Positions 6,656 to 56,953 of a stretch of 64,000 nucleotides of DNA are shown in pieces (positions within the stretch are counted from its first letter, which is position 1; every line of letters begins with the position of its first letter). The position numbers and the translations under genes were made by a program. This DNA comes from an uncultured Verrucomicrobiota bacterium. GTDB lineage: Bacteria; Verrucomicrobiota; Verrucomicrobiia; Limisphaerales; J093. The stretch spans positions 233-64,232 of the forward strand of contig CAYXPA010000007.1 in the NCBI GenBank assembly GCA_964466945.1. The letters are read 5' to 3'. The notes beneath the pieces were generated by a model. That model saw only the letters and a list, made by a program, of their open reading frames with translations, did no database searches and had not been told where the DNA came from.

Positions 6656-6695
6656 ATCGGGCGGATCCGACGGATCGGACGGATCCGACGGATCG
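6656..6695. repeat. 9-bp tandem repeat (ATCCGACGG/ATCGGACGG) x4
   Basis: ATCGGGCGG ATCCGACGG ATCGGACGG ATCCGACGG ATCG read directly. Confidence 0.9.
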
Positions 6696-7103: not shown

Positions 7104-7694
7104 ATGAAGACAACCCAACGCCACAACAACCGGGCCGGCTTCACCCTCATCGAGATGGTGGGTGTGCTGGCGGTCATTGCCATCCTCGCGGCCCTCTTGG
7201 TGCCGAAAATCTTCGCGGCGATCAACGAGTCGCGGCTGAACAACGCCCTAGGCGGCATCAACACCTGCAAGACGGCGGCGATCCAGTACTTCACCAAGAA
7301 CGGATCCTTCCCCAGTGTAGACACTAGTGACTTTGACGGGACGCTCCTGACCCAAGGCTTTTTGGACAAGGAACTCGAAGTCAAATTGGGGACGGCGGCC
7401 GATTGCGAAATTGAAGCGACCACAAGTACTGGCGCTGCCGAGGGAGGGTCTGATGGCAACGGGCGTTTTGATCTGGACGGGGATGCGGCGGCAGATGTTC
7501 CGGAAAACGCCAGCGTGGTTCAAGTGGTACTCACGAACGTCAAGCCGGACGATGCGCGCGAACTGAGTTTGCGCCTTGATGGCTCGGACATGAGCGCGGG
7601 CGACACTTCCACAGCAGATAAAGAAGGCCGTGTGGCATACGCTACTCCCTCGGGTGGTTTGGCTACCGTGTACGTGTACCTCGCGCACAAGTAA
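7104..7694 (+). CDS. Type IV pilin, probable major subunit (196 aa precursor)
   Basis: Class III signal MKTTQRHNNRAG|FTLIEMVGVLAVIAILAALLVP with E at +5; own promoter and downstream terminator-like hairpin. Confidence 0.9.
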   Translation: MKTTQRHNNRAGFTLIEMVGVLAVIAILAALLVPKIFAAINESRLNNALGGINTCKTAAIQYFTKNGSFPSVDTSDFDGTLLTQGFLDKELEVKLGTAADCEIEATTSTGAAEGGSDGNGRFDLDGDAAADVPENASVVQVVLTNVKPDDARELSLRLDGSDMSAGDTSTADKEGRVAYATPSGGLATVYVYLAHK

Positions 7695-9851: not shown

Positions 9852-9867
9852 GGCGGAGGGCGACTTG

Positions 9868-11085: not shown

Positions 11086-11111
11086 GAAAACCTCCAACCC
11101 GGGAACACCCC

Positions 11112-12239: not shown

Positions 12240-12249
12240 GGAGGCCGCC

Positions 12250-13407: not shown

Positions 13408-13419
13408 GAGCGGCCTGTC

Positions 13420-14601: not shown

Positions 14602-14618
14602 CCCCGCAACCCCGCGCC

Positions 14619-16169
14619 ATGCTTACCCTTCGCGCCCGCAGCTCCCCCGCCCGCCGCAGTCTGCCCGGCCACCACCACACGCTGAGCGTGTCTTGGTTGC
14701 GCAAGCACTTCCGCGCCGTGGCGGTGCATCGCGGCCAGGTCACCGGCGTCTGGGAATCGCCCGAGCCGGTCGAGGGCACCGACCGGTTTGCGGAGCTGCT
14801 GCAAAAGGCCATCGCCGCCACCGGGTACGCCGGCTCGACCGTGTCGCTGGTGCTGGTGCACCAACACCTGGTGCACCTGCTCATCGAGGTGCCGCCGGTC
14901 AAGCGGAGCATGTTGGACAAGGTGGTCAACCGCCAGGCCCAGCAACAACGGCTCTTCCCCGGCCAGGCCGTCTGGAGCATAGCCCCGGCCGAGAGCCCGA
15001 AGAAGGGCCCGCCGCAGTATCTGCTGAACCTCTTCCCGCAACTGCTCCTGGAGGAACTGCTGGCCGGTGCCCAGCGCGCGGGGTGTTACCTCACCGCCGT
15101 CATTCCCGCCACGGCGATCCTGCGCGAACAGTTGTTCGAGTTGCCCGTTCCCGAAAGCCAGGTGGCTATGATCGTGGCACTCACCGGCGAGAACACCACC
15201 GTGCTGGTCGGCCGCAGCGACGGCCGGTTGCTGCTGGCGCGCGTGCTCCCGGGCAACTGGGAGGACAGTTTCGCGCGTCTGGTGGTGGACCTCAAACGCA
15301 CCCTGCTCTTTGTCAACCAGCAGGAGGGCGTGAACGTGGACCACCTCTGGCTCTTCGGCCCCGGGGCCGAGGCCCAGGTGGCGCGCGTGCAGGAGCAGAC
15401 CGGCCTGCCCACCCAGCCCAGCCCCACGCCTTGGTCGGAGGATTACTGGGCCCTGGCCGCCCTGCGCCTGGAGCCCAATCAAAGCCAGAACCTGGTGCCG
15501 CCCGAACTCCGCCAGGCCCCGCAACGCCACATCTTCGCCAAGGTCGTGGGCACCATCACCGCCCTGGCGGTCCTGGCCTCAGCCATTTTCTCCTGGAAAC
15601 TCCACGGCATGTACCGGGACGAGCTGCAAAACGTGCGGCATCTCGAACAGGAGGTTGCGCGCCTCCAGGCCCGTCACCAGGAATTGCAACGCCTCGAGGC
15701 CGAGGCCGCGCACCGCCGCGGCCTGGTGGACCTGGTCAGCGCCAACCGCCCCGATCCCGTGCCACTGTGGCTGCTGGGCTACCTGGGCGAAGCCGTGCCG
15801 CCGGACCTGGTGGTCACCAACTTCCAGTGCGCCCGCGAAGGGCCTTACTGGCACCTGCGGTTGAGCGGACTGCCCCAGCCCCGCACCGGCCAGAGCCGGG
15901 ACCTGCTGGCCCTGGAGCGTGACCGGAACCTCCTCAGCAACCGGCTGATGAACGGCCCGTTCCACGTCCGCTTCACCCCGCCCGACACCAACACGCTGGC
16001 CGCCGCGGCCGCCAGTGCCGCGCCGACCAACGCCGCCCCAGCGGTCGCCACCGCGGCGCCCAGTTCGGCCGATCTATTGGCCTTCCTCAAACGGCTCCGG
16101 GCCGATACCGGCACCGCGCCCACCAACTCGCCGGCGGAATTTGCCCTTGAAGGCTGGATGCACCCATGA
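14619..16169 (+). CDS. Probable PilM/PilN-like (GspL/MshI-like) alignment protein
   Basis: Large cytoplasmic domain (LARLVVDLKRTLLFV, LWLFGPG), one TM helix, coiled coil, then VVTNFQC...WHLRLSG ferredoxin-like periplasmic part; position in the operon. Confidence 0.65.
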   Translation: MLTLRARSSPARRSLPGHHHTLSVSWLRKHFRAVAVHRGQVTGVWESPEPVEGTDRFAELLQKAIAATGYAGSTVSLVLVHQHLVHLLIEVPPVKRSMLDKVVNRQAQQQRLFPGQAVWSIAPAESPKKGPPQYLLNLFPQLLLEELLAGAQRAGCYLTAVIPATAILREQLFELPVPESQVAMIVALTGENTTVLVGRSDGRLLLARVLPGNWEDSFARLVVDLKRTLLFVNQQEGVNVDHLWLFGPGAEAQVARVQEQTGLPTQPSPTPWSEDYWALAALRLEPNQSQNLVPPELRQAPQRHIFAKVVGTITALAVLASAIFSWKLHGMYRDELQNVRHLEQEVARLQARHQELQRLEAEAAHRRGLVDLVSANRPDPVPLWLLGYLGEAVPPDLVVTNFQCAREGPYWHLRLSGLPQPRTGQSRDLLALERDRNLLSNRLMNGPFHVRFTPPDTNTLAAAAASAAPTNAAPAVATAAPSSADLLAFLKRLRADTGTAPTNSPAEFALEGWMHP

Positions 16170-16915
16170 GCACCGACAACGACAAATCCTGGCCGGCCAT
16201 CCCGCCCTCGCAGTTGAAGCTCAGCCGCGGCGAGTCGGGGACCGAGTCTGCCCCGCCGGAGACGCCGGCTCCACCTGCCCCAGCCGATGCGCCGGCTGGC
16301 GCGCCCGGCCTGCGCCGCCCGCCGCCGCCGAAGAAGGCTTCCCTCACCACCCGCGACTGGGTGATCCGCGGGGCGATGGTGGGCATTTTGCTGGCCGCTC
16401 TCGGTGTATTGGTCTGGAGCTACCAGCGGCTCATGCCCCTCCAGGCACAGGGCCGCCGCCTGACCGAACGCGTCAACAAACTCCAAGAAGAGGTCGCCCT
16501 GATGGAGCGGGGCTATACCCCGGCCGACCTCGAAAAGCTGGCCCGCGAGTTCCAGTTCGCCGGCGCGCAACTCTTCGGCGGCGAAGAGGCCCTGGCCGCC
16601 TGGTTCAACGGCCTGCGCCGACGCTCGGTGCCCCTGGCCCTGGAGGCCAATGCCGACTTCGGCCCGCCACGCACCCCCGCCACCAACTACTCCGTGGCCG
16701 TGGTCCCGGCCACGCTCACCCTCAACATCAAGCCCAGCGAAGACGCCACCTCGCCGCGCAGCCCGCACGTGCGGGTGTTGACCCTGCTCGATGAACTGGT
16801 GCGGCAGACCAACCGGGCGGACCTCCTGGCGCTGCACATCACCGCGGGCTCCAACTCGATCGCCCAGGTCCGGGCCGTCTTCGAGCTCTGGGCCGGACAG
16901 GAGGCCACCCCATGA
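16166..16915 (+). CDS. Probable PilO-like (GspM/MshJ-like) protein
   Basis: Single TM helix, coiled coil, periplasmic alpha/beta domain; ATGA overlaps with both neighbours. Confidence 0.55.
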   Translation: MSTDNDKSWPAIPPSQLKLSRGESGTESAPPETPAPPAPADAPAGAPGLRRPPPPKKASLTTRDWVIRGAMVGILLAALGVLVWSYQRLMPLQAQGRRLTERVNKLQEEVALMERGYTPADLEKLAREFQFAGAQLFGGEEALAAWFNGLRRRSVPLALEANADFGPPRTPATNYSVAVVPATLTLNIKPSEDATSPRSPHVRVLTLLDELVRQTNRADLLALHITAGSNSIAQVRAVFELWAGQEATP

Positions 16916-17520
16916 ACCGCTGGCGGGTGCAAGTCCTCATCGTGGCCGGCGCCCTGGTGGTGGTCGCCGTGGCCGCCCTGCTGCTCTGGCCCAAACTCAA
17001 GTCCTCGCCCGTGGCCGCCGCCGTCAACCGGAGCCAACAGGCCACCAATCTCACCGCGGCGGCGTCAACCCCGGGCGCCACCAACGTCGCGACCAACGCG
17101 TCGCCGGCCCCGGACAACCTGCCACGGTTGGACCGGCGCGCCATCCTCGAACGCTGGCCGGAGTGGGCGGAGGGACACTACCGCGATCCGTTCCAGGTGA
17201 TGTTTCCGGTGAGCACCGGAGCGGTCGCGCAGGCCGAGTTGACCCCCGCCCGGCACTTGAAACTCTCCGCCACGTGGGTACAGACCGGCAGCCGGCTGGC
17301 CGTCATTGATCAGCGCATCTATGGCGTGGGCGACAAGGTCGCCGGGTACACCGTGCTCCAGATCGAGCACGGCCAGGTGGACCTCCAAGGGCCGGAGCGC
17401 AACGAAACCATCACCTTCGCCACCTACGTGCCCCCGCCGCCGCCCGGCCAGGGCCGGCTCATCAGCACCAATCTCATCGAAAAATTGCTGGGTCCCGAAC
17501 AGGAAAAACTCCGCAACTGA
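16912..17520 (+). CDS. Probable PilP/MshK-like protein
   Basis: N-terminal TM, YRDPF motif, LKLSATW...RLAVID...YGVGDKVAGYTVLQIEHGQVDL beta domain; directly before the secretin. Confidence 0.6.
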   Translation: MNRWRVQVLIVAGALVVVAVAALLLWPKLKSSPVAAAVNRSQQATNLTAAASTPGATNVATNASPAPDNLPRLDRRAILERWPEWAEGHYRDPFQVMFPVSTGAVAQAELTPARHLKLSATWVQTGSRLAVIDQRIYGVGDKVAGYTVLQIEHGQVDLQGPERNETITFATYVPPPPPGQGRLISTNLIEKLLGPEQEKLRN

Positions 17521-17526
17521 GGCTTT

Positions 17527-19245
17527 ATGAGTCCGAACACCTCCTTGCTCCAATCCCAACCTGCTGTGTACGCCGCTCCGAACCGGTTTGGGCGCCGCTC
17601 GGGCGTGGCATCCCGGCCGCTGTCCAGCGCAGCGCGCGCACGCGGGCTGCTGGTGCTGGCCCTGAGCGGCGCGTGCCTGCTCGCAGGCGCCGCCGAGGCC
17701 AAACGCTCCGACCGCAACCAGTTTGTGCCGGACTGGAGCAAATTCGAGGCGCCGCCTTACCTGAACACGCCGGACCAACCCACGCCCGGCCCGGCTCCTG
17801 AACCGGAACCGCCGGCGCCGCCGCCTCCCGGCCCCGAGTCCCACGTCGCGGACAAAAAGTTGTACAGCTTCGCCGCGGACAACCTGGAGCTCAAGGCCGC
17901 CCTGGCCATGTTCGCCCGGGCCAATGACCTGAACATCGTGCCGGACAATGATGTCACCGGCACGGTCACGCTGGACGTACGCGGCCTGCCGTTGGACCAG
18001 ATGATGCGCGCCCTGCTCGAAGCGCACGACTGCACCTGGAGCGAGCAAGACGGCCTGATCCGCGTGCGCACCACCGAGACGCGGCTCTTCAAGGTGGATT
18101 ACCTGCGCCTGAGCCGCACCGGCCAGGGCCAGAGCTCGGCCATGCTGGCCGCGGGCAGCACCGGTGGCGGCATGGGTGGCGGGATGGGCGGTGGCATGGG
18201 TGGCGGCATGGGCGGCGGCATGGGCGGCGGCGGTGGCATGGGTGGCGGCATGGGCGGTGGCATGGGCGGGATGGGTGGCGGCATGGGCGGCGGTGGTGGC
18301 GGTGGCGGTTCGTCCATCAGCCTCACGGCGGACAACCCGGTGGATTTCTGGAAGGAACTCAAGGACGAACTGGGCGTACTGCTTACCGAGAAGGGCAAGA
18401 ACTCGATCGCCATCAACATGACCGCCGGGCTGATCCAGATCACTGACCGGCCCTCGGCGTTGCGCCGGGTCGAAGACTACCTGCAGGGCCTGCGGCAGAC
18501 CGTCCAGCGCCAGGTGGAAATCGAGGCCAACATCTACGACGTAACCCTCAACGACAACTTCCAGTTTGGCATTGACTGGGCGCGGGTCATGGAATCGGCC
18601 AGCCAACGATTCACTTATGGCAGCTCCACTCTCCCTGAGGTCATCGGCGGCGGAAGCCTGGGCGAATCCTCCCTCACCCTGAACTACCTGAGCGTGCCCC
18701 ACGGCACCCGCGTGGTGGTGGACGCGCTCCGCCTGCAAGGCGCGGTGGAAATCATTTCCAAACCGCGCATCCGTGCCCTGAACAACCAGACCGCGCTGAT
18801 CAAGGTGGGCACCGAAACGCCGTTTTTCGCGCAAACTTCCTCCTTTATGCAAAACGCCGGCGGCACGACCCAAACCCAGGGCGACCAGATCATGATGATC
18901 ACCGTGGGCGCCATTCTGGCCATCACGCCCCAAATCTCCGAAGACGGCCAGATCGCCCTGGACATCTCGCCCGTGTTGACCAGCCTCGTCGGCACCGAGC
19001 GGTCTCCCAGCGGCACGGCCACGGCGCCGATCCTCGACACCAAGCAGGCCTCGACCATGGTCCGGGTGCCCAGCGGCACCACCGTGGTCCTGGGCGGACT
19101 CATCCAGACCGAACGGGCTCGCAACAAACGCAAGGTACCGGTGGTCAGCGACATTCCCGGCCTGGGCGCGCTGTTCACCGGCCACTACGACGCCAAGCGC
19201 AAAAAGGAACTCGTCATCTTCCTGACACCACGATTGATCAACTAA
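17527..19245 (+). CDS. Outer-membrane secretin (MshL-like) with (GGGM)n loop
   Basis: STN-like N domain (LNIVPDNDVTGTVTL), N3 domain, RQVEIEANIYDV, SKPRIRALNNQTALIKVG, VPSGTTVVLGGLI, IPGLGALF, KELVIFLTPRLI. Confidence 0.92.
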   Translation: MSPNTSLLQSQPAVYAAPNRFGRRSGVASRPLSSAARARGLLVLALSGACLLAGAAEAKRSDRNQFVPDWSKFEAPPYLNTPDQPTPGPAPEPEPPAPPPPGPESHVADKKLYSFAADNLELKAALAMFARANDLNIVPDNDVTGTVTLDVRGLPLDQMMRALLEAHDCTWSEQDGLIRVRTTETRLFKVDYLRLSRTGQGQSSAMLAAGSTGGGMGGGMGGGMGGGMGGGMGGGGGMGGGMGGGMGGMGGGMGGGGGGGGSSISLTADNPVDFWKELKDELGVLLTEKGKNSIAINMTAGLIQITDRPSALRRVEDYLQGLRQTVQRQVEIEANIYDVTLNDNFQFGIDWARVMESASQRFTYGSSTLPEVIGGGSLGESSLTLNYLSVPHGTRVVVDALRLQGAVEIISKPRIRALNNQTALIKVGTETPFFAQTSSFMQNAGGTTQTQGDQIMMITVGAILAITPQISEDGQIALDISPVLTSLVGTERSPSGTATAPILDTKQASTMVRVPSGTTVVLGGLIQTERARNKRKVPVVSDIPGLGALFTGHYDAKRKKELVIFLTPRLIN

Positions 19246-42613: not shown

Positions 42614-45600
42614 TCACGGCACCCAGACCACGCGATAGAACTGCGTGCGTGCGCCGCCGACGCCGGTATCGGTCAGCACGGCCTCGGTGCCGGTGGCGGT
42701 GAGCTGGCCGGCGTTGCGCCAGACACCGCTGGCCAGCGCGGCGGTGGCTTCAACGCGGTAGGTGCGGCCGGGCTGGGTGCTCCAGCGCAAGGTGACCTGG
42801 CCGGTCGGGCTCACGCTCAGTCCGAGCAGTTGCGGCGCCGGCGGCGGGGCGGCGGTGTTGGCGGCGCCGGGCGTGGGAGTGGCGAGCACCTGCGGCAGAG
42901 TGTCCTCGCCGCGCGGTTCGGGATAACCGAACGCTTGGTCGGCGCTCAGGCCGGTGTATTCGAGGAAGTCCACGACCGCCGGCTGCCCGTCCTGGAGGCG
43001 GGCGAGCACCACCACGCCGTTGGGCGCGCTCAGGCGGAAGAGGGTGTGCCAGTGCGGGCCGGTGGTTTGCCCGGCCTGGGCGTCGGCCCAGACCACCTTG
43101 TACTCGCCGGGGGCAAGCGTGGCGCCGGCCGGGAAGGCCCACCGGGTGAGGTTGCTGAAGTTGTCGGAGAGGTACCAACCGGCCAACGGCAGCGGCGCGG
43201 CGCCCAGGTGGGCCAGCTCGAGCCACGGGTCGGCCTCGCCGGCGTTGTCGCGCGGGCCGGTCCGGTTCACGGGCTGGACTTCGTTGATCCAGAGGTTGGG
43301 GAAAGGCTCGAGCGTGCCGCGCACGGAGTTGACGTAACCGGGGGTGTAGCCTTCGCGGCGCAGCTCGATGACGTCCACGCTCACGCCCATGACGATGTCA
43401 GAGCTGGTCGGGTTGGTTTGGTGCACTTCGACGGCCAGCACGTTGGTGCCGGCGCGCAGATTGTCCACCGGGACATCGAAGGGGCCTTCGTACGCGGCAT
43501 CGCTCACGGTGCGGAGGGCGGTGTCGCCACGGTCAGGCAGGACGCCTTCGGTCATGCCCAGCCAGAAGATGGGTTGGCCGTTGAGGTAGAAGACGGCGCC
43601 ATCATCAATCACGGGACGGAGGCTCAGCGTGGCGCCGGCGGGATTGCCGGTGAAGGTGAAGGTGTGGCGGAATAGGTAACTCATCTGGCCCAGGGTCAGC
43701 GGCGTGTTCTTGGGCGCGGGCAGCGCGGCGTTCTCGACGTAGAGCAGCGCCTTGCCCCCGGGCCAGGAGCTGTCGTTGTAGTTGAGGTTGGTCCAGCCGG
43801 GCGCGGGGTCTTCGGCGGCCTGCCAGTAGCGCCAGGTGGCGTCAATGGGAACGAGGTTGCGAGGGGCGTTGGTGGTCTGTTGGACCACGGCCGTCCAGTT
43901 GGCCACGCGCGCGTTGTCCTGGCGCGGGTCAATCAACTGGAGCGAGGCCTGGCCGGTGCCGGCCGCGGCGGGCCAGGGCGGGGTGCTGCGGAAGGCCACG
44001 CGGTCCACCAGCGCCTCCGGGTCCGGCGTGGCGGCGCGGTAGAGGGCGATGACGCCGCCGTCGGGGGACAGTTCGTTGACGTAGTTGCCCAGCACGTTGG
44101 TGGGCGAGCCGTAGGTGCTGTTGAAGGCGGTCAGGTTGCGCGCGACCACGAGGTAACCGCCCGGCTCCAAGCGCGTGCCGGCAGGGAAGAGGTAACGCGC
44201 GCCGGTCAACAGCCAGCCCGACAGGTCCCAGGTCCGGTTGGTCGAGACGTTGTGCAGCTCGACAAACTCGGCCCCCGGCGCCGGGGGACTGTACATGATT
44301 TCGTTGATGACCACCCGCGGCACGCCGAGCACCGTGATGGCGAAAGTGCGCGCGGCGGTGAGCGGATGGCGCAGGTCGTTGTCGGTCACCCGCACGGTGA
44401 CGGGATAAACCGCGCCCGCCTCGTCGTCGCCGGCGCGCCAGGTGAACACGCCGGTGTCGGGATCAATCACCGCCCCGACCGGCGCGCCCGGGCCCAGGCT
44501 GAAGGTCAGCCGTTGGGCGGGCCGGTCCGCATCCGTGGCCACGGCTGTGAATTGCAAGATTTCGCCGGCCCGCACCTGGCGATCGGCCAGCGGGGCCAGC
44601 TCTGGCGCCTGGTTGCGCTCGAGCACTTCCACGCCGAAGACCCGGGTGGTGCTCAGGTGCGGCGGCAGCGTCTCGGTGGCGCGGACCTCGAAGATGAAGT
44701 TGCCCGGGCCGTCGTCCTCGGTGGTCGGCCAGGTGATGAGGCCGGTGAGCGGGTCCAGCGTGGCGCCAGCCGGGGCGCGGACCAGCGAGAAGGTGATCGG
44801 CGAATTGGCGGCGTCGGGGTCGCGCGCCTCGAGGCGGAGGGTGAACTGGTCCATTTCCTCGACCGTCTGCGGCGGGATGAAGGCCATCTCCGGCGGGTTG
44901 TTCACCTCGTTGACCGTGACGCGGAAGGTGCGCGTGTGGCTCAGCGGCGGCGTGCCGTCGTCGGTCACGCGCACGGTGATCGGGTACACGCCCGGGCCCT
45001 GGGCCTCGGCGGGCGTCCAGACCAACGCCGGGCCTTCGGGGTCAATGTCCGCGCCCTCGGGCGCGCCCGGCTCGAGGCTGAAGGTCAGGCGTTGCGGCGG
45101 CAAATCGGGGTCCGTGGCGGCCAAGGGGACGGCCAGCAAGAAGCCTTCATCCGCGACCTGGTCCGCGATCGGGTCCAGCACCGGCGGCGCGTTCACTTCG
45201 CTCACCGTGATCGTCACGGTGCGGGACGCGGCGCGGGGCGGCGTGCCGTTGTCGGTGACGCGCACCGTGAAGGTGTACTCGCCCGGGCCCTGGGCCTCGG
45301 CAGGCGTCCAGGCAAACACGCCGGTGTCCGGCTCGAGGCTGGCGCCGGCGGGAGCGTCGGCGCCCAAGCTGAAGGTCAGTTGCTGGCCGGCGTCGGGGTC
45401 GCTGGCGGTGACGGTGAACCGGAGCGGGCTCAATTCGGGCGCGGTGCGGTCGGCGATGGGATCGAGCACCGGCGGGCGGTTGCCGCCGACCAGGTCGTTG
45501 GGCGCGCCGGGGGTGGGCCGGTCCAGCGTCACCAGCGGCAGCGGCCCGCTGTCGGGGTAGCGGCCCTGGCTGACGTCGTTGGTCTGGGCGCCGAAGGTGA

Positions 45601-48600
45601 AGCCGTCCACCAGCGAGCCGTCCGGGGCGAAGAGGCCCAGCGCCTCCCCCGCCGCGCTGAGCTTGAAGTTCGCGTGCAACGGGCCGCCGGGCTGGGTCTG
45701 GTTGCCCTCCTCGTCCGCCCAGACCAGCAGGAAGCCACCCGGCGGGACGATCGAGCCCGGAGGGATGAGGTACTTGGCCGGGTTGGCCAGCTCGTCGGTG
45801 AGCGTGTACCCGGAGAGGTCCACCGGCGCGTTGCCGGCGTTGTGCAGCTCGAACCAGTCGTCGAAATCGCCGTCCGCCGGGTCGGGGAGGGTGGTGTTGG
45901 CCGCCATGAATTCGTTGAGCGTGACCTGAATGGCCGGCATGGTCGGATCGTTCGGCGCGCCGGGGGTCACCCGGTGGAACGGCCGGCGCTTGCGCGGCTC
46001 GCCGTCCGGGTAGGAGCCGTAGCTGCGGTCGGCCGCCAGCAGGACGTAGTCGAGGTAATCCATCACGGCCGGTTGGGCCGGGCTGCCCTGGAGGCGCACC
46101 AAGGCCACCGCGCCGGTGTCGGGCGCGAGGCGGAAGTTGGTGTGGGGCGCGCCGGGCGCGGACTGGCCGGGCTCGCCATCGGCCCAGACGCGCAGGAACT
46201 GGCGCGGGCCGATTACGGTGCCGGCCGGGAACTGCCAGCGGGTGAGGTTGGTGTAGGTGTCGGTGAGGTAAAAGGCGGAGAGGTCCACCGCGGTGTCACC
46301 GGCGTTGTAGAGCTCGATCCAGGGCTCATGCCGGCCGCTGGCGTCGGTGGGCCCGGTGAGGTTGTTGGGCTGGACCTCGTTGATCCACACCGGCGGGAAG
46401 GCGGGCAGGGTCTGGCGGGCGGCGTTGGCGCGACCCGGGGTGACGCGGTTGACGTCGTTGGTGGCCGTGGCCGTCCAGTTGCCGACGCGCCACGCGCCGA
46501 GGGCGGGGTCGAGGAGTTGGAGCGAAGGGCCCAGGCCGTCGGCCGCGGGCGGCCAGGGCAGGCGGTCGTCGTAACGCACGTCGCTGATGACCGTGTCCTG
46601 GTCCGGCGAGGCGCCGGGGCGGACCAGAGCGAGGGACTCACCGCCGTTGTCAAGGGTGCCGGGGTATTCGTCGAAGACGGGGATGGTCTGGCCGTATAGG
46701 TTGGCGAAGGCCTGCCGGTCCTGGGCCAACACCAAGAAACCGCCGGGGGGCAGGATGGCCCCGGGCGGGAAGGTGTAACCCACGCCGTCCAGGCGCCAGC
46801 CGGACAGGTCGAAGGGCGTGGTGGTCGAGCGGTTGTGCAGCTCGAGGAAGTCGCCCCCCGGTTGGTCGGCATTGTACTGGACCTCGTTGAGGACCACGAA
46901 ATCCTGCGGGCGTTCCAGCTCGCCGGTGTAGGTCACGGTGATGCTGCTGGAAGCGCCGGGGACGGGGTTGCCGCGGCGGTCCTTGCCCACCAGGGCCAGC
47001 ACGTTGGTGCGCTGGGTCAGGGGCACGGTCAGGCGGAAGCTGCGCTGGTCGGTCCACGTGACCGGGTACGGGACGCCGTTGACCTCGATCGTGGCCACGG
47101 CGAAGGGCGCGCGGCCGGTGAGCGCGGTCGTGGCGGTGGTGGAGGTGTAATCCTGGCCGCCGTTGGTGGTGATGACGAAGTTGGTGGCGTCGTTGAGGCG
47201 AATCTGGTTGGTGATGTAGCCGCGGCGGCTGTTGATGTAGCTGGTGATGGTGCTCGGCGAGGACAATCCGGTGATGCCGTTTTTGAGCAGCACGCTGCGC
47301 CGGGCGTCAATCTGCGGCTGGAAACGCTCGGGCAGGAGCGGGCCGTTGACCGCGTCCAGGTAGGCGCGCCAGAGCATCCGGCGGAAGGCGGGGTTGTCGT
47401 ACATGCGGTTGACCACCGGGTCCTGCCCGCCCCAGAGCGCGGTGGTGGCGCCGTCGCCCAGGCCGAAAGTGAAGTCAATGTCCCAGCGCATGAGCACCGA
47501 GCGCAGGCCGGGTTGCTTGTAGAGAAACATGTTCTGACCCACGCGATAGCTCCACATGTCCCAGTCGCCCATGATCCAGCCGCAACTGAAGGTGCGCATC
47601 CACTGGTCCATGTCGGCAATCGTCAACAGGCCGTCCACGTAGCCGGTGCCGGTGACGTTGGCGGCGTTCACCAGGTCGAAGATGGTGGCGTAGTTGGTGG
47701 CCGTGCCGTCGTTCGAGCGGCGCTGGAAGGTCCAGCGGTAGCGGGCCAGCTTGAGGGCGCTGCCGCTCAAAAATCGCTCGAGCGTGGCGCTGACGGCGTT
47801 GAACTGGCTGTTGTCGTCCTGGAACTCGAACCACATGGCGACCTTGTACAGGTCGCCCGCCCCGCCGTCCGGGAACCAGCGCTCGGCGTAGGCGTGGTCC
47901 GGTTGTTCGAGGTCCTCCATCACGTTGTAAGGCATGTTGCCGTTCCGGTACAGGCGCAGGTAGTGGGCGTGCAGGTAGGGCACGCCCTGCTGCTGGTGCA
48001 ACCAGGCGGCCAGTTGGCTGCGAATGGCCGTCGGCTCGTTGCCGGCGTTGCCGGTCGAGGCGAAAATCCGTTCATCCGTCCCGAGCAACGGGTCGTCTTT
48101 GGGGACCTGCACCGCGAAATCGCCCCGGCCGCCGTGCCAGGGGCTGGCCTTGTCGCGGAAGCCCACGTTGTAGAGGACCCGGTCGGTGTTATAGACCAGT
48201 GTGGCGTCGCGGTAGGTGTTGTCCAACCCGGCCGTGCGCGATTGCTCGGTCGCCTGCGTATTCCAAAGGTGGTAGTGGGCAAACGTCCCGAACGGCACGG
48301 GGTCGCCCCACCGGATCAGGCATTCCTGGCCCGGGCTGGCCTCGGTGAATTCGCCGGAGGGGAAGACCGACGTGGCCGGCGAAGCCGCCGCATCCGAGGC
48401 CTCGACGCGAAAGGCCACGAGGTTGCCCGCCGCCCGGCCGGTCAATTGCGCGGACCAGACGCCGTCCCCGGCCACGGCGTCCCCGGACGAGCCGTCGTCG
48501 CGCATGACCAGCGTGGTGTAGGTGCTCGCGGGGTCCACGCGGTAGCGCAACCGCACCTGGCCGATGCCATCGGGGTCGCTCACCCGGCAGGTGACCACCA

Positions 48601-51600
48601 CGGGCTCGTTGGCCTGGGGCACCGCGGGCGAGTGGGTCACGTCGGAAACGGCCGGGCCGGCATTAGCGGCGCGGCGGCTGTTGACCTGGCCGGGGGTGCC
48701 GAGGTTTTTGGGGATTGCCATGCGGGCGGGGAACTCGATCCAGTTGCCCTGGGCGCGGAAGAGCACCTCCGGCCAGCCGGCCAGCCAGCGGACCTTGGCA
48801 CGGATGGTGGCGTTTTGGTTTTGCGCGACGGAGGTGGCGAGGGTGTTCCGGATGCTGTTGATGCCGGTGTCGCCGTCGCCCTGGGCGCGCACGTGCAGGC
48901 AGCGGCTGCCGCTGAAGGCGCCGGTGGTGTCAATGGTCGAGCGGCTGTGGTTGCCGGTGCGCGTCCAATAGGTGGGCGCGGCCAACGTGCCTTCCTCAAA
49001 GCCGCCGTTGCGGACCACGTTGGTGCTGCCCACGCGGAAGAACTCGACGTCGTCCACCAGACACTCGCCGGGGCCGAGCATCGAGATGCGCAGTCGGTTG
49101 GCGGGGAAACTGGTGTTGCCGTTGTCCAGGCGGCCGGTGAACTCGACGGTGGTCCAGGGAGCCTTCTGGGTCTCGTCGCTGTCGGCCCAGTTCATGGGTT
49201 GGAGCGGGTCGGCGCGCGGGTCAATGCGCTCGAGGCTCGAGCCGCCGCCATCGCTCCAGCGCCCCCAGCGGCCGCCGTCCCGGTACCGGACCTCGTCCAC
49301 GGTGATGTAGATCGTATTGGTGGTCACCTGCCCGTTGGCGTTGGTGCGCACGAGCTGGTCCGGCTTGGCCAGGGCGAGGCGTTCGCCGTCGTTGGCCAGG
49401 CGGCCGGAGAAGTTGCCCACGGTGTTGGCGGTATTGAGCTGGGGGTAATTGGCCCGCAGGCGCGCGGCGTCCGCCGCCACCACCAGATAGCCGCCGGGCG
49501 GCAGGGTCGTGCCGGCGGGGATTTCAAAGTCAATCCCGTCCACGAACCGCCAGCCGGACAGGTCCACGGGCGTGAGGCCGACGTTGTGCAATTCCACGTA
49601 CTCGTCCGCGTCGTCCTCGCTGATCGGGTGGTACATGATTTCGTTGATGACCACCGGCTCGATCCGTCGCGGAGTGTTGGCGCTGCCCGGCGTGGGCAGC
49701 AACAAGCGCCGCCAGCCCGGCGCGCCGTCCGGGGTGCGGCCCAGGGCCACGCCATTTTCCTGGGGGCCGAACCGCACCGCGTCCAGCACCCGCGCGGCCT
49801 CGGGGTCCAGCAAGTAAACCGTCTCCCCGGCAGAATCGAGGGCGAAGCCGAGCTGGCTTTGGTCGAAGGCCAGGAAGCCGCGCGCCGGCAGGCGCGTGCC
49901 GGCCGGGATGCGAAAGCGGTTGGTGGCCGGGTCGTCGGTCAGGATGCAGCCGGAGAGGTCCACCTCGACGGCGCCGGTGTTGAACAGCTCCACAAAGTCC
50001 AGCACGGGGTCGTCGGTGTGGGCCAGGATTTCATTGAGCACCACCGCGCTCAGGGGCGTGGGCCGCCAGGCATCGGGCGTGCCGGGCGAACCGCCCCGCA
50101 GTTCGCTGGCTGCCCAGGCGCGCGGGTCGTCCTCGCCGTAGCTGGGGCGGGCCAGCACCAGTGAATGCCCTGCGCCGTCGGCCGCCGCCGGCCAGGGGGG
50201 TTGGTCGGAGTAATTCACCTCGAGCCGGATGGCGTCCAGGTTGTTGCGCAGCCGCACCCGGCCGGCGTCGTTGGGCAGGCTGCCGGTGTACGGCCCCAGG
50301 ACGTTGGTGAGGCCGTACACGGCCTTCACGTCCTCCGGCGCCGCGGCCACGACCACCAATTCCCCGGCCTGGAGGATGAAGCCCTCGGGGAAGGTGAAGG
50401 CGATGTCGCCAGACAGCCGCCAGCCGCTGAGGTCCTCGAACACCGAGCGGGCGTTGTACAACTCGACGAACTCGAGGTTCCGGCCGTCGGCCCGCGGCGC
50501 GGGGTGGTACATGATTTCGCTGAAGATCATGCCGGTGGCGCGGCTGGACGGCCCCAGCGGCTCGCAGGGAAATGCCAGGGCGGGTACGGTGACCGGATTG
50601 ACCGCCGGGCCGAGCTCGCGGAAGCGGGCGGTGGCCAGGCTGTTGGTGTTGCCGCTGGCCACGGCCAGGCCCAGGTAGAGCGTGTTGCTCAGGCCGCTGA
50701 AGGTCTGCGTGCCCAGTTGCACCCAGGTCTGCCCGTCCACGCCCGCAAAGCCGGTCAACGTCTGCCCCTGCCGCCGCAGCCGCAGCCAGGTCTGCGGGTA
50801 ATTGGCCCGGAAGCCGCCGCGCGGCGCGGCCGTGGTCGTGGCGCCGCCCGCCGTGGCGCGCGCCTCGAAGAAGCAGCCCAACTGCATGGACGAAGCCAGG
50901 GCGGCAGCGAACCGCGCGTTGGCGTCCGTCGTTTCCCGCGCCATCAGCCCGGCGTGCAGGAAGGGGTCGCTCACCGTCACGCCGTCCAAGCGGGCGCGTA
51001 GGTCGAAGTCGCCGGTCAGGGGCTTCCAGGCGAACTGGAGCCGGTCGCTGGTGCCGCCGATGTCGCCGGCGCCGCTCACGTCCACGCCGCCGGGCACCGG
51101 TTGGGCAGCGCCGGCCAGGGGCGGATTGCCGATGTCCCAGGGCAGGTACTCGACGGGGGTGAACCGGGCGGTCGAGTTGGGCGGGATAGTGTTGGCATTT
51201 TGGGCGCGGTCTTTGACGTGGTTGACGGTCAATGTGTACGTGACGCCCAGGGTCAGGGGCGAGGTGGTGAGGATCACCACGTCCGGCGTGGCGCCGAAGG
51301 CCGCGTTCGAGATGGTGACCCCGCCGTCGAGCCGGTAGTTGGCCGGCGTCGTGGCCGAGGGCGCGGCTACCGGCTCGCTATAGGTGACCTCGACCTGGTT
51401 GGTGCCCAGGTTGCGCGCGCCCAAGAGCGCGGGCGGGGTGGTGTCGGGCAACACGGTCAGTACCGCCTCGTCGCTGGTAGCGGAGCCGAGCTCGTTGGTC
51501 ACCACGCAGCGAAACCGGGCGTTGTGGTCCGCCAGCGTGACCGGACCATAGACCAGCTCCGGGCCATCCGCGCCCAACAGGGCGCCGCCGTTGCGCAGCC

Positions 51601-52279
51601 AGCGGTAGTGGTAAAAGCCCACCGCGGCCATTTCGATGCGGAAACGGGCCAGTTGCCCCTCGACGACGGTGGTGTTGGTGGGCTGGACGGCGATGACCGG
51701 CGGGCCGAACGACACGCCGTAAGGCACCAGGTTGGTGGCCACGATGGGAGCCTGGTCTGTACCGTCGGGCATGAGCCAGCGCACCGCCAGGTTGTCGCCG
51801 CCGCCGCCCTCCTTCATCAGGGCCGCCACGTAGTACGGCCGGCCGGCGGTCAGCAGGATGGGGGCGGATTGTTGCTGCGGATACTTGCCCCACTCGCGGC
51901 TGGAGGTCCATTCCGGCACCGAGGCGACGAGGCGGATATTGGCCGGGTTTTCGTCCGTGCTCAGGAACAACGCCCCGTTGTCGTCGCTGGCCAGCCAGAA
52001 GGTGTAATTGCCGGTCAGCGGAGGGACGATGTACCCGTGCAGGCGCTGACCGTAGTTGTCCAGCACGTCGGTAGGCGCCTCGAAGAGGTCGGTGACGTAG
52101 TTGGTACTGGTGGGGTTGTTGGGCCAGGCGGGCGAATTGGTCAGCGAGCCCAGGTCGGTCCCGCCGATGCCTTCCCAGACCTCGCGCAAGAGGCCGCGGG
52201 CCGGCGGGGCGGCCCCCGCAGAAAACAGGCTCGTCCACAACACCAACCCGCTCGTCAGCAAGCAATTGAGTCGTTTCAT
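42614..52279 (-). CDS. Giant secreted protein (~3,220 aa): PA14, Ig-like domains, ~8 lamin-tail domains, CotH kinase domain, 4 cadherin-like repeats, C-terminal FYRV domain
   Basis: Signal peptide MKRLNCLL...AGA; YTFWLASDD PA14; repeated I/LNEI/V..(D/E)FVEL.N lamin-tail motifs; DWD..N.FLY..RWDIDFTFG CotH; four N.PP.L..IAD..LTFSL..AP.GA repeats; start at 52279 chosen inside ORF ending at 52477. Confidence 0.88.
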   Translation of the reverse strand: MKRLNCLLTSGLVLWTSLFSAGAAPPARGLLREVWEGIGGTDLGSLTNSPAWPNNPTSTNYVTDLFEAPTDVLDNYGQRLHGYIVPPLTGNYTFWLASDDNGALFLSTDENPANIRLVASVPEWTSSREWGKYPQQQSAPILLTAGRPYYVAALMKEGGGGDNLAVRWLMPDGTDQAPIVATNLVPYGVSFGPPVIAVQPTNTTVVEGQLARFRIEMAAVGFYHYRWLRNGGALLGADGPELVYGPVTLADHNARFRCVVTNELGSATSDEAVLTVLPDTTPPALLGARNLGTNQVEVTYSEPVAAPSATTPANYRLDGGVTISNAAFGATPDVVILTTSPLTLGVTYTLTVNHVKDRAQNANTIPPNSTARFTPVEYLPWDIGNPPLAGAAQPVPGGVDVSGAGDIGGTSDRLQFAWKPLTGDFDLRARLDGVTVSDPFLHAGLMARETTDANARFAAALASSMQLGCFFEARATAGGATTTAAPRGGFRANYPQTWLRLRRQGQTLTGFAGVDGQTWVQLGTQTFSGLSNTLYLGLAVASGNTNSLATARFRELGPAVNPVTVPALAFPCEPLGPSSRATGMIFSEIMYHPAPRADGRNLEFVELYNARSVFEDLSGWRLSGDIAFTFPEGFILQAGELVVVAAAPEDVKAVYGLTNVLGPYTGSLPNDAGRVRLRNNLDAIRLEVNYSDQPPWPAAADGAGHSLVLARPSYGEDDPRAWAASELRGGSPGTPDAWRPTPLSAVVLNEILAHTDDPVLDFVELFNTGAVEVDLSGCILTDDPATNRFRIPAGTRLPARGFLAFDQSQLGFALDSAGETVYLLDPEAARVLDAVRFGPQENGVALGRTPDGAPGWRRLLLPTPGSANTPRRIEPVVINEIMYHPISEDDADEYVELHNVGLTPVDLSGWRFVDGIDFEIPAGTTLPPGGYLVVAADAARLRANYPQLNTANTVGNFSGRLANDGERLALAKPDQLVRTNANGQVTTNTIYITVDEVRYRDGGRWGRWSDGGGSSLERIDPRADPLQPMNWADSDETQKAPWTTVEFTGRLDNGNTSFPANRLRISMLGPGECLVDDVEFFRVGSTNVVRNGGFEEGTLAAPTYWTRTGNHSRSTIDTTGAFSGSRCLHVRAQGDGDTGINSIRNTLATSVAQNQNATIRAKVRWLAGWPEVLFRAQGNWIEFPARMAIPKNLGTPGQVNSRRAANAGPAVSDVTHSPAVPQANEPVVVTCRVSDPDGIGQVRLRYRVDPASTYTTLVMRDDGSSGDAVAGDGVWSAQLTGRAAGNLVAFRVEASDAAASPATSVFPSGEFTEASPGQECLIRWGDPVPFGTFAHYHLWNTQATEQSRTAGLDNTYRDATLVYNTDRVLYNVGFRDKASPWHGGRGDFAVQVPKDDPLLGTDERIFASTGNAGNEPTAIRSQLAAWLHQQQGVPYLHAHYLRLYRNGNMPYNVMEDLEQPDHAYAERWFPDGGAGDLYKVAMWFEFQDDNSQFNAVSATLERFLSGSALKLARYRWTFQRRSNDGTATNYATIFDLVNAANVTGTGYVDGLLTIADMDQWMRTFSCGWIMGDWDMWSYRVGQNMFLYKQPGLRSVLMRWDIDFTFGLGDGATTALWGGQDPVVNRMYDNPAFRRMLWRAYLDAVNGPLLPERFQPQIDARRSVLLKNGITGLSSPSTITSYINSRRGYITNQIRLNDATNFVITTNGGQDYTSTTATTALTGRAPFAVATIEVNGVPYPVTWTDQRSFRLTVPLTQRTNVLALVGKDRRGNPVPGASSSITVTYTGELERPQDFVVLNEVQYNADQPGGDFLELHNRSTTTPFDLSGWRLDGVGYTFPPGAILPPGGFLVLAQDRQAFANLYGQTIPVFDEYPGTLDNGGESLALVRPGASPDQDTVISDVRYDDRLPWPPAADGLGPSLQLLDPALGAWRVGNWTATATNDVNRVTPGRANAARQTLPAFPPVWINEVQPNNLTGPTDASGRHEPWIELYNAGDTAVDLSAFYLTDTYTNLTRWQFPAGTVIGPRQFLRVWADGEPGQSAPGAPHTNFRLAPDTGAVALVRLQGSPAQPAVMDYLDYVLLAADRSYGSYPDGEPRKRRPFHRVTPGAPNDPTMPAIQVTLNEFMAANTTLPDPADGDFDDWFELHNAGNAPVDLSGYTLTDELANPAKYLIPPGSIVPPGGFLLVWADEEGNQTQPGGPLHANFKLSAAGEALGLFAPDGSLVDGFTFGAQTNDVSQGRYPDSGPLPLVTLDRPTPGAPNDLVGGNRPPVLDPIADRTAPELSPLRFTVTASDPDAGQQLTFSLGADAPAGASLEPDTGVFAWTPAEAQGPGEYTFTVRVTDNGTPPRAASRTVTITVSEVNAPPVLDPIADQVADEGFLLAVPLAATDPDLPPQRLTFSLEPGAPEGADIDPEGPALVWTPAEAQGPGVYPITVRVTDDGTPPLSHTRTFRVTVNEVNNPPEMAFIPPQTVEEMDQFTLRLEARDPDAANSPITFSLVRAPAGATLDPLTGLITWPTTEDDGPGNFIFEVRATETLPPHLSTTRVFGVEVLERNQAPELAPLADRQVRAGEILQFTAVATDADRPAQRLTFSLGPGAPVGAVIDPDTGVFTWRAGDDEAGAVYPVTVRVTDNDLRHPLTAARTFAITVLGVPRVVINEIMYSPPAPGAEFVELHNVSTNRTWDLSGWLLTGARYLFPAGTRLEPGGYLVVARNLTAFNSTYGSPTNVLGNYVNELSPDGGVIALYRAATPDPEALVDRVAFRSTPPWPAAAGTGQASLQLIDPRQDNARVANWTAVVQQTTNAPRNLVPIDATWRYWQAAEDPAPGWTNLNYNDSSWPGGKALLYVENAALPAPKNTPLTLGQMSYLFRHTFTFTGNPAGATLSLRPVIDDGAVFYLNGQPIFWLGMTEGVLPDRGDTALRTVSDAAYEGPFDVPVDNLRAGTNVLAVEVHQTNPTSSDIVMGVSVDVIELRREGYTPGYVNSVRGTLEPFPNLWINEVQPVNRTGPRDNAGEADPWLELAHLGAAPLPLAGWYLSDNFSNLTRWAFPAGATLAPGEYKVVWADAQAGQTTGPHWHTLFRLSAPNGVVVLARLQDGQPAVVDFLEYTGLSADQAFGYPEPRGEDTLPQVLATPTPGAANTAAPPPAPQLLGLSVSPTGQVTLRWSTQPGRTYRVEATAALASGVWRNAGQLTATGTEAVLTDTGVGGARTQFYRVVWVP

Positions 52280-52505
52280 GACCAAGGCGAACTGCCCAGA
52301 GCACCCCACCGCCACGCGTTCAGGCCGCGCGTTCAGGCCGGAGGCGTCACGCAGGCGTAACACGCCCCCGCTAAACAGCAAGTCAGAAGCCAGCCCCGTT
52401 GCCTGGTCAGGCCGCACAGTCCAGGAAAACGACCGGCGGCGCGGCGGGTGTTCCGGCTTCCGACTACCTTCGAGCACCTATTTCAAAAAATTCAAAAAAA
52501 AGTTC

Positions 52506-52533
52506 TTGCCTGCCTTGCGAGGGCTGGTATAAA
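52506..52533 (+). promoter_or_regulatory. Putative strong sigma-70 promoter of PEP-CTERM copy 1
   Basis: TTGCCT-N16-TATAAA with TG extension, preceded by A-tracts (UP-element-like). Confidence 0.6.
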
Positions 52534-52621
52534 TGCGCCGTGAATTGGCCCGGGTGGGCCAGTTCGTTTCGGCCGAAACGAAACAACGTAGGGAAAAACC
52601 AAACAACAGAACAACGCCGTT

Positions 52622-53164
52622 ATGAAACACCAACTCAGTCTCGCCGTCGCCCTGGCCCTCGCGGCCGGTGCGATGAGCCATCGGGCGCTGGCCCAAATCC
52701 CCAGCGCGCTTACGCCGTCCCTGACGATGGACCCCATCTGCTTCGACCTGACGATCGGGTACATCCCGTCGGGCAACTACGAAGTGTACTTCGTCCCGGG
52801 CGGCCCCAATGCGTGGGAAATCCGGATTGACTTCAACAGCTTGGTCAGCCCGGCGACCGTTGACGGTTACGCGCAGCATTACGTGGCGCCGCATCCGGGT
52901 GAAGTTGTGCCCAACACTGCGTGGGCGTTTAGCTTCACCACCGCGGTGGTGCCGGACAGCGCGGGCCCGACCGATGTGAAGCATCCGTTGATTCGCGGTG
53001 GCGGTGACCACTTCGACCGGTTCTACGCCGAGATCAGCGCGGTGCCGGGTGGCTACTTGGTCAACGTCTCCGGCTGCCACATTCCCGAGCCGGCGGATTA
53101 CGCCGCGTTGGCCGGGTTGGGCCTGGTGGGCTTCGGCGCCTATCGCCGTTTCCGCAAGGCCTGA
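52622..53164 (+). CDS. PEP-CTERM surface protein, copy 1 (180 aa)
   Basis: Signal peptide ending ALA; C terminus IPEPADYAALAGLGLVGFGAYRRFRKA. Confidence 0.9.
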   Translation: MKHQLSLAVALALAAGAMSHRALAQIPSALTPSLTMDPICFDLTIGYIPSGNYEVYFVPGGPNAWEIRIDFNSLVSPATVDGYAQHYVAPHPGEVVPNTAWAFSFTTAVVPDSAGPTDVKHPLIRGGGDHFDRFYAEISAVPGGYLVNVSGCHIPEPADYAALAGLGLVGFGAYRRFRKA

Positions 53165-53195
53165 ACCTCGGGTCAACAGACCTGAACCCTTCCAC

Positions 53196-53226
53196 GGCGC
53201 GGGCTTCGGCCCGCGCCTTTTGTTTT
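53196..53226 (+). terminator. Intrinsic terminator
   Basis: GGCGCGGGC-TTCG-GCCCGCGCC-TTTTGTTTT. Confidence 0.9.
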
Positions 53227-53318
53227 CAGGAGAACGTTCCATTAGAGGTAGCCGGGAGCCGGCCAGCGGGCGTTCCAAGTGAGGGTTCGGAGAAAAGTCT
53301 TACTTTCTCAAAAAAAGC

Positions 53319-53347
53319 TTGCTGACCCTTGGGCGGCTGCCAAAACT
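53319..53347 (+). promoter_or_regulatory. Putative sigma-70 promoter of PEP-CTERM copy 2
   Basis: A7 tract then TTGCTG-N17-AAAACT; a similar TTGCCT-N17-AAAACT lies at 33527-33555. Confidence 0.45.
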
Positions 53348-53435
53348 AGCCACGTGAATTGGCCCGGGTGGGCCAGTTCGTTTCGGCCGAAACGAAACAA
53401 CGTAGGGAAAAACCAAACAACAGAACAACGCCGTT

Positions 53436-53978
53436 ATGAAACACCAACTCAGTCTCGCCGTCGCCCTGGCCCTCGCGGCCGGTGCGATGAGCCATCGGGC
53501 GCTGGCCCAAATCCCCAGCGCGCTTACGCCGTCCCTGACGATGGACCCCATCTGCTTCGACCTGACGATCGGGTACATCCCGTCGGGCAACTACGAAGTG
53601 TACTTCGTCCCGGGCGGCCCCAATGCGTGGGAAATCCGGATTGACTTCAACAGCTTGGTCAGCCCGGCGACCGTTGACGGTTACGCGCAGCATTACGTGG
53701 CGCCGCATCCGGGTGAAGTTGTGCCCAACACTGCGTGGGCGTTTAGCTTCACCACCGCGGTGGTGCCGGACAGCGCGGGCCCGACCGATGTGAAGCATCC
53801 GTTGATTCGCGGTGGCGGTGACCACTTCGACCGGTTCTACGCCGAGATCAGCGCGGTGCCGGGTGGCTACTTGGTCAACGTCTCCGGCTGCCACATTCCC
53901 GAGCCGGCGGATTACGCCGCGTTGGCCGGGTTGGGCCTGGTGGGCTTCGGCGCCTATCGCCGTTTCCGCAAGGCCTGA
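53436..53978 (+). CDS. PEP-CTERM surface protein, copy 2 (identical protein)
   Basis: Translation identical to 52622..53164. Confidence 0.9.
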   Translation: MKHQLSLAVALALAAGAMSHRALAQIPSALTPSLTMDPICFDLTIGYIPSGNYEVYFVPGGPNAWEIRIDFNSLVSPATVDGYAQHYVAPHPGEVVPNTAWAFSFTTAVVPDSAGPTDVKHPLIRGGGDHFDRFYAEISAVPGGYLVNVSGCHIPEPADYAALAGLGLVGFGAYRRFRKA

Positions 53979-54009
53979 ACCTCGGGTCACCAGACCTGAA
54001 CCCTTCCAC

Positions 54010-54040
54010 GGCGCGGGCTTCGGCCCGCGCCTTTTGTTTT
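54010..54040 (+). terminator. Intrinsic terminator
   Basis: Identical hairpin and T-tract to 53196-53226. Confidence 0.9.
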
Positions 54041-54205
54041 CGGGGGAACGTTCAGCCGCCCCTGGCCCCTCTTTCGCGCGCCTCGCCCGTGGACTTTTGC
54101 TCGCCGGGAACGGCCGCTTCGGCCATGCTTGCGGACCCGGCGCCGAGTCCGGGCGGGCTCTAGCCGGAAACGGACCCGCCCGGCCCGCGCGCCGCCGAAG
54201 AAACG

Positions 54206-56953
<2,748 letters not shown>

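Follow-up and report, generated by a model that had tools for sequence, protein, structure and literature searches.

The 64,000-nucleotide stretch analysed here (hereafter the window; positions 233 to 64,232 of contig CAYXPA010000007.1, assembly GCA_964466945.1) derives from an uncultured Verrucomicrobiota bacterium and carries two adjacent, directly repeated copies of a gene for a small protein with a predicted PEP-CTERM sorting tail. The tandem pair is real, and its two members probably evolve in concert, as the outcome of an old tandem duplication that would at first have taken in the core promoter and was followed by divergence of the two promoters, whereas repeated non-reciprocal recombination (gene conversion) would have kept the transcribed part nearly or fully identical. 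The strongly conserved leader and terminator probably provide the homology anchors for conversion, only a hypervariable loop of nine residues would have stayed unhomogenised in sister haplotypes, and in the window the loop of copy 1 would also have been overwritten by the version of copy 2. The coordinates of the features are collected in Table 1.

The two copies form a direct repeat of 701 nt each with a period of 814 nt, as observed with a repeat finder and by exact base-by-base comparison, which agrees with the sequence-only reading of a repeat of about 700 bp running from just past the −10 elements to just past the terminator. The copies differ at three positions (53176, 53228 and 53231), every one of them 3′ of the stop codon, giving a load of 3 mismatches in the 64 nt at the 3′ end vs 0 in the 637 nt before it, and the two coding sequences (CDSs) encode identical proteins of 180 residues; the claim of a CDS without differences and a 3′ flank with a few is thus borne out by exact alignment for this record. 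Between copy 1 and copy 2, identity amounts to 48% in the upstream 100 nt, 100% in the leader, 100% in the CDS, 90% in the 3′ untranslated region (UTR) and 37% downstream. The edges of identity are sharp, at 52539 on the left and 53239 on the right, and the core promoters beyond the left edge are homologous but diverged. For a 20-mer taken from the leader common to both copies, chance predicts 0.00 occurrences in the window, and the terminator hairpins (53196-53217 and 54010-54031) are identical, with TTTTGTTTTC directly after each. Each copy is predicted to be a separate monocistronic unit composed of a promoter, an 80-nt leader, the CDS and an intrinsic terminator.

The repeat begins 5 nt past TATAAAT in copy 1 and 6 nt past AAAACT in copy 2, which would place its onset at about the predicted transcription start of each copy. 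Judged by sequence, the −10 element of copy 1 is near-consensus and that of copy 2 is weak; a stricter scan for the sigma-70 consensus called 0 promoters, and the elements represent a reading by eye combined with conservation in relatives. The upstream promoter regions had been described as unrelated, a description that did not survive alignment: the −60 to −1 segments of copies 1 and 2 reached a score of 11 (z 5.7), equalled by 0 of 300 shuffles, and both promoters of the window also align to the promoter of the single-copy relatives L011, L013 and L004 (z 6.7-11.4). The two promoters are accordingly best read as diverged homologues, while the distal spacer (53240-53305) showed no significant similarity to the region upstream of copy 1 (z 0.7). 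Higher dosage and two regulatory inputs from the pair are plausible.

Comparison of paralogue with orthologue divergence showed 100% nucleotide identity between the two CDSs of the window, synonymous sites included, vs 75-92% identity to the orthologues, a gap that makes conversion necessary to account for the matching synonymous sites. JGI metagenome contigs encode the protein without change. Strain-level evidence was obtained from L001, a JGI metagenome contig of 79.9 kb (79,903 nt) aligned to window 43436-63978 (20.5 kb), where 26 columns differ, 23 of them in copy 1 at 52979-53098 and three in alaS. Copy 1 of L001 contains another 27-nt segment, which encodes PHLRNDQTG in place of KHPLIRGGG and in which more than half of the bases differ, together with three synonymous single-nucleotide polymorphisms (SNPs; 53057, 53068 and 53098). 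The same divergent copy 1 was observed in L002, from another sample, and copy 2 of the window is identical in both contigs. At all sites of copy 1 that vary in L001, copy 1 of the window equals its own copy 2, yet it keeps the 3′ UTR variants specific to copy 1; copy 1 of the window therefore differs from that of L001 and L002 only by a tract equal to copy 2, possibly an assembly artefact.

Among the relatives, L003 harbours three tandem copies, each with its own A-tract/−35/−10 region, conserved leader and terminator. Their CDSs are 75-83% identical and mosaic, with blocks (by unit position) of 98-100% identity between A and B at 258-340, 100% between A and C at 119-158, and 100% between B and C at 529-570 and 609-646, which reads as the pattern expected of partial conversion. 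The distant relatives L008 and L016 carry a tandem pair, and one copy is shown in L004, L011, L012 and L013, where assembly collapse is possible. The earlier proposal of an older duplication homogenised by gene conversion is thus supported by the diverged promoters, the identical leader and CDS, the strain tract matching copy 2 and the mosaic structure of L003.

The existence of the pair was assessed in X1 and X2, two freshwater runs containing the locus, from Logan contigs in which variants are unphased. The repeat is represented by one contig of 689 nt at about twice the depth of the flanks (19.9 vs 7.6-12.8 in X1; 24.9 vs 9.6-14.8 in X2), and a 185-nt contig across the inter-copy junction (53198-53382) occurs at single depth in both runs; because of the doubled repeat depth and the single-depth junction, two tandem copies exist in these samples. 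The contig L027 (JGI 3300037501, Ga0394875_0000408; 79,079 nt) displays a single copy at 2867-3567, of the copy 2 type, in which the promoter of copy 1 is joined to the 3′ end of copy 2 and followed by alaS, which is probably an assembly collapse and possibly a real deletion by unequal crossing-over.

Several observations weigh against the proposed concerted evolution or parts of it. The X1 repeat contig holds the divergent patch and the X2 repeat contig the divergent SNPs, so that the identity in the window is possibly an artefact, and assemblers mishandle this repeat, as the reduction of the pair to one copy in L027 shows. The closest relatives (L004, L011, L012 and L013) show a single copy, which leaves the dating of the duplication loose. 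The copy-wise similarity to the promoters of L003 (z 7.2 for copy 1 vs L003A; z 4.3 for copy 2 vs L003C) is only suggestive of orthology of the two promoters to distinct L003 copies. For the protein, the hidden Markov model (HMM) scores of the tail lie below the cut-offs (PF07589 17.9 vs 20.7; TIGR02595 15.6 vs 16), and no exosortase (EpsH/Xrt) was found among the genes scanned in the window, which covers 64 kb of the genome only.

The strongest alternative holds that the complete identity of the CDSs is an artefact of assembly or polishing, by which the copy 2 variant was put into both positions, and that the real genome is of the L001 type, in which a tandem, near-identical pair would still be real; this is quite possible, if short of probable. 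It is favoured by the divergent copy 1 of L001 and L002, which belong to the same strain-level population, by the X1 and X2 contigs, which look like bubble-popped mosaics, as expected for an L001-type genome, and by the collapse in L027. Against it, L028, an independent contig of 1223 nt assembled from a further sample, is 100% identical to window 52245-53467 and reproduces copy 1 of the window exactly between the flanks of copy 1 on both sides. Only 78 nt separate the SNP converted at 53098 from the retained 3′ UTR variants of copy 1, close enough for a k=127 graph, or for reads of 150 nt, to be expected to join them. The three alaS SNPs against L001 and L027 have no convincing occurrence in any indexed run, and the window may represent a distinct population. 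Between a very recent conversion tract from copy 2 to copy 1 (120-637 bp) and homogenisation by the assembler, the balance is nearly even and tilts slightly to conversion; the identity of the copies holds for this sequence record and is not proven for the organism, and homogenisation during assembly is compatible with the general conversion model. In X3 and X4, two microbial-mat metagenomes with relatives at a depth of 50-100, the region 52300-54300 is represented by dozens of short contigs, 35 of 50 and 20 of 29 of which fit both copies, a fragmentation that suggests high within-sample micro-diversity of the gene.

A young tandem duplication, too recent to have diverged and free of gene conversion, is improbable. 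The complete identity of leader and CDS, and the single copy beside alaS in the closest relatives, are what such an event would leave, but the promoters are heavily diverged, with indels, right beside the identical leader and CDS, where both should be alike, and the differences are confined to the 3′ segment. In addition, the sister haplotypes depart at over half of the positions of a 27-nt stretch, in a gene that is otherwise identical, and the three-copy relative L003 is mosaic. Still less credible is a single gene in the organism with a false second copy generated by haplotype duplication in the assembler: the single-copy L027, shorter than L001, would fit, whereas the doubled depth of the repeat in X1 and X2, the junction contig at single depth and the independent presence of the junction in L001, L002 and L028 contradict it. 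Purifying selection alone on protein and mRNA, which the strong conservation of leader, signal peptide and PEP-CTERM tail across the family might invite, has next to no standing, since the identity extends to synonymous sites while 8-25% of CDS nucleotides are changed in orthologues, and since the protein, at 89% identity to L011 against 96.7% for alaS, is the faster evolving of the two.

Two further candidates were rejected. A diversity-generating retroelement was discarded, as substitutions in the loop involve all four bases and the scan of neighbouring genes showed no reverse transcriptase, and a mobile element or miniature inverted-repeat transposable element (MITE) was discarded, as inverted repeats and transposase are lacking and the neighbours are conserved housekeeping genes.

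The 80-nt 5′ UTR, or leader, is conserved across the family far above the CDS. Its first hairpin consists of GAAUUGGCCC-GGGU-GGGCCAGUUC, with 10 bp and the loop GGGU, and is supported by covariation, a base pair having changed on both sides and kept its pairing in each of three lineages (L005, C-G to U-A; L006, G-C to A-U; L012, C-G to U-A), with one additional U-G wobble. Three of its ten pairs are changed on both sides vs 0.5 in shuffles, 0 of 500 shuffles reach 3 and slid controls give 0; 99.4% of the alignment cells are paired, and RNAalifold predicts the same hairpin. The leader further includes a perfect 20-bp palindrome, TTCGTTTCGGCCGAAACGAA, which is invariant in 10 related loci and contains hairpin 2. 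This palindrome is read as RNA structure rather than as a DNA operator, which is less likely, because the changes in L012 introduce two G-U wobbles into hairpin 2 that are workable only in the RNA of the + strand. Hairpin 1 as an attenuator terminator was rejected, since no U-tract follows it. A scan of 51500-55000 against Rfam, with E up to 10, had as its sole hits sRNA models scoring below threshold on the terminators, and the leader matched no covariance model. An A/C-rich tract leads up to the ATG, and no Shine-Dalgarno sequence adjoins the start codon. At 52562-52587, GAAAC occurs twice in tandem (GAAACGAAAC), by which hairpin 2 is pairable in two registers. Its long form and the base of hairpin 1 require the same GUUC, so alternative conformations of the leader are possible, and with this competition a role as a switch or protein-binding site is possible. 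By analogy, the leader is most likely a 5′-terminal stabilising stem-loop followed by an unstructured, efficiently translated tract, ompA-like, as would suit the mRNA of an abundant envelope protein.

Contigs of relatives were found in several small hot-spring and mat metatranscriptomes, where coverage corresponds to leader plus CDS. The RNA contigs begin inside the leader and none of them reaches into the promoter or spacer, and the start of alaS is without RNA coverage in three of four runs. As weak evidence, these contigs fit separate, well-expressed monocistronic transcripts, and they have no bearing on an S-layer role. In two independent metatranscriptomes (X11, where the contig is adapter-joined, and X28) a contig starts at 52558, within the 3′ arm of hairpin 1, which could reflect either processing of the 5′ end or arrest of the reverse transcriptase by the hairpin.

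The encoded protein begins with a signal peptide, MKHQLSLAVALALAAGAMSHRALA/Q, which by inspection contains a basic N-terminus, a hydrophobic core and an A-x-A-like site and is conserved in the family. The PEP-CTERM signal comprises a Pro-Glu-Pro motif, a transmembrane helix and a basic cluster at the extreme C-terminus (PMC3237569). The C-terminal tail of both copies, IPEPADYAALAGLGLVGFGAYRRFRKA (53081-53164 and 53895-53978), exhibits this tripartite architecture and is modelled by AF2 as a helix at residues 157-179. Above the TIGR02595 cut-off are P0062 (17.7) and P0105 (20.5), both matched to the tail by profile search, and no other PEP-CTERM tails occur in the window. The mature domain, about 128 residues, is predicted to be all-beta with nine strands (AF2: pLDDT 68, pTM 0.64); a Foldseek search of the AF2 model against the PDB gave a best TM of 0.30, with no fold assigned, and Pfam and NCBIfam returned no domain match besides the PEP-CTERM tail and no S-layer or SLH homology. 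The protein is likely to be secreted and located at the surface via exosortase. The suggestion that it is the major surface-layer protein found no backing, given the lack of an S-layer domain and of a fold match; the sole hint of expression comes from transcripts of relatives in small hot-spring metatranscriptomes.

Twenty close homologues with 70-92% identity were detected, all from metagenomes or metagenome-assembled genomes (MAGs), and a profile search of 1.84 billion representatives revealed about a dozen full-length distant relatives, beyond which only PEP-CTERM tails were matched. The MAGs of the homologues are labelled Verrucomicrobiales, Verrucomicrobiae and Pedosphaerales, and the runs containing relatives are hot-spring, microbial-mat and freshwater metagenomes; the literature searches yielded nothing on this protein family. 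Within the domain, the motif H-x-V-A-P-H-x-G-E-x-x-P-N (residues 86-99; 52877-52918) is kept even in relatives of 33-40% identity (L007 and L008), with the instances HYVAPHPGEVVPNT, HLVAPHANELAPNP, HNVAPHAGELAPNP and HVKAPHAGEVAPNT, and is a candidate functional or metal-binding site. A 7-residue in-frame duplication (IPSGLGP beside IPSALTP) just past the cleavage site was observed in L003 (10200-10225) and in P0005, P0008, P0010 and P0016.

Column entropy in the family reaches its maximum at residues 122-130 (1.82 bits vs about 0.5 elsewhere), and this peak coincides with the segment that separates copy 1 from copy 2 in L001. In the AF2 model the variable loop sits between the predicted strands E112-120 and E131-141. 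The loop types PHLRxDQTG and xHPxxxGGG recur across different genomes, and the diversity of the loop may be under selection.

The position of the locus between the giant gene and alaS is conserved in relatives. The window otherwise contains aceE, a type II secretion/pilus-like cluster, ychF, a gyrA-like gene, proB, anmK, a DEAD helicase and accessory genes of a cbb3 oxidase, and represents ordinary chromosome. The three alaS SNPs against L001 (55008, 55033 and 55036) lie within 29 nt, at least one of them is non-synonymous, and the cluster may be a second small recombination patch; the alaS-side alignment of L027 likewise displays three mismatches to the window, apparently the L001 alleles. 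The type II secretion or type IV pilus-like cluster (8112-19245) encodes a GspE-like ATPase, a GspF-like platform protein and a secretin (17527-19245); a prepilin-type N-methylation motif at 6291-7694 is listed with it, and five open reading frames (ORFs) at 12250-17520 within it have no Pfam match.

Table 1. Features of the tandem gene pair and its neighbours, in window coordinates.
Feature	Coordinates	Strand	Basis and remarks
Giant secreted protein, about 3221 aa from the ATG at 52279; PA14, several LTD (lamin-tail), CotH, He_PIG and Big_9 domains; conserved left neighbour, transcribed divergently relative to copy 1	42614-52279	−	ORF and domain scan
Putative promoter region of copy 1: A-tract 52485-52501, −35-like TTGCCT 52506-52511, −10-like TATAAAT 52528-52534	52485-52534	+	Read from sequence; homologous to the promoters of copy 2 and of L011, L013, L004 and L003A; predicted function
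Repeat copy 1, 701 nt: unit running from near the predicted transcription start to shortly beyond the terminator	52539-53239	+	3 mismatches vs copy 2
80-nt 5′ leader of copy 1: hairpin 1 52542-52565, hairpin 2 within the 20-bp palindrome 52563-52582, then A/C-rich unstructured tract	52542-52621	+	Minimum free energy fold, covariation, RNAalifold
CDS of copy 1, 180 aa: signal peptide about residues 1-25, all-beta domain, PEP-CTERM tail residues 154-180 (53081-53161)	52622-53164	+	ORF, sub-cut-off PEP-CTERM HMM matches, AF2 model, family alignment
Codons of the hypervariable loop, residues 120-128, KHPLIRGGG; PHLRNDQTG in copy 1 of L001 and L002	52979-53005	+	Strain alignment, family entropy
Minimal tract where copy 1 of the window equals copy 2 but copy 1 of L001 and L002 differs: loop patch plus 53057, 53068 and 53098	52979-53098; could extend 52539-53175	+	Strain alignments
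Intrinsic terminator of copy 1: 9-bp G+C stem, loop TTCG, T-tract	53196-53227	+	Terminator scan
Inter-copy spacer carrying the copy 2 promoter	53240-53352	+	Sequence reading, promoter alignment, junction contig
Putative promoter of copy 2: A-tract 53310-53316, −35-like TTGCTG 53319-53324, −10-like AAAACT 53342-53347	within 53240-53352	+	Read from sequence
Repeat copy 2, 701 nt: leader 53356-53435, CDS 53436-53978, terminator 54010-54041	53353-54053	+	ORF, exact comparison, terminator scan
alaS (alanyl-tRNA synthetase), conserved right neighbour	54206-56953	+	ORF, comparison with relatives

The concerted evolution of gene pairs is itself a known phenomenon, exemplified by tufA/tufB of Salmonella and E. 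coli and by flagellin and other surface-protein pairs that undergo gene conversion; what is new here is the protein family, the leader motif and the strain-resolved tract. In common with tuf-type pairs, the paralogues are far closer than the orthologues, synonymous sites included, the ends of identity are sharp and the tracts are below 1 kb. In contrast to them, the copies are adjacent and direct rather than distant, the edges of identity coincide with the structured leader and the terminator, one hypervariable loop resists homogenisation in sister haplotypes, and relatives carry between one and three copies.

Substrates of the PEP-CTERM/exosortase system, reportedly described by Haft et al. 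in 2006, include small families such as FxDxF and PepA. The present protein resembles them in its signal peptide, its tail (IPEP, hydrophobic helix and RRFRK) and its small size, as well as in forming a lineage-specific paralogous family in a Gram-negative environmental host of the Verrucomicrobiota, whereas its mature domain is without similarity to a named PEP-CTERM family or solved fold and the HMM score of its tail is sub-cut-off.

In E. coli, the 5′ UTR of ompA is a leader with a 5′-terminal stem-loop that stabilises the mRNA of an abundant envelope protein. The leader described here likewise places a stable hairpin at or near the predicted 5′ end, followed by an A/C-rich unstructured tract, ahead of an envelope-protein gene, and its hairpin carries compensatory changes; unlike the ompA leader, to which it bears no sequence relation, it has no Rfam family and its second hairpin can pair in two registers and runs into the base of the first.

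Recombination between tandem or silent copies generates surface-protein variation in Neisseria (pilE/pilS and the opa genes) and in Borrelia (vlsE). The likeness to these systems consists in a short, hypervariable and probably exposed loop, non-reciprocal transfer between paralogues and the co-existence of haplotypes within one population. The differences are that both copies here appear, from their sequence, to be expressed units rather than silent cassettes, that only 2-3 donors are available, that no specialised recombination signals were seen, and that the single event observed lowers diversity.

Four assemblies of this one locus gave three answers, namely a pair of unlike copies, a pair of identical ones, or a single copy, and therefore paralogue identity in metagenome contigs is not to be trusted as such. 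For the organism, the locus offers strain-resolved concerted evolution in an uncultured Verrucomicrobiota lineage, in which the edges of conversion would be the edges of the transcript and the remaining difference would be the hypervariable loop of a probable surface protein. A tentative and on the whole unlikely extension is that the locus constitutes a surface-variation module, in which diversifying selection acts on the one exposed loop of an abundant PEP-CTERM-anchored beta-protein, the tandem expressed copies (three in a relative) swap loop cassettes through short gene-conversion tracts, and an undescribed structured leader RNA drives expression. If this were true, the loop would be, for example, a receptor for phages or predators in hot-spring and freshwater mats, cells would show one or two loop types, and the leader RNA conserved in the clade would set the stability or translation of the mRNA.

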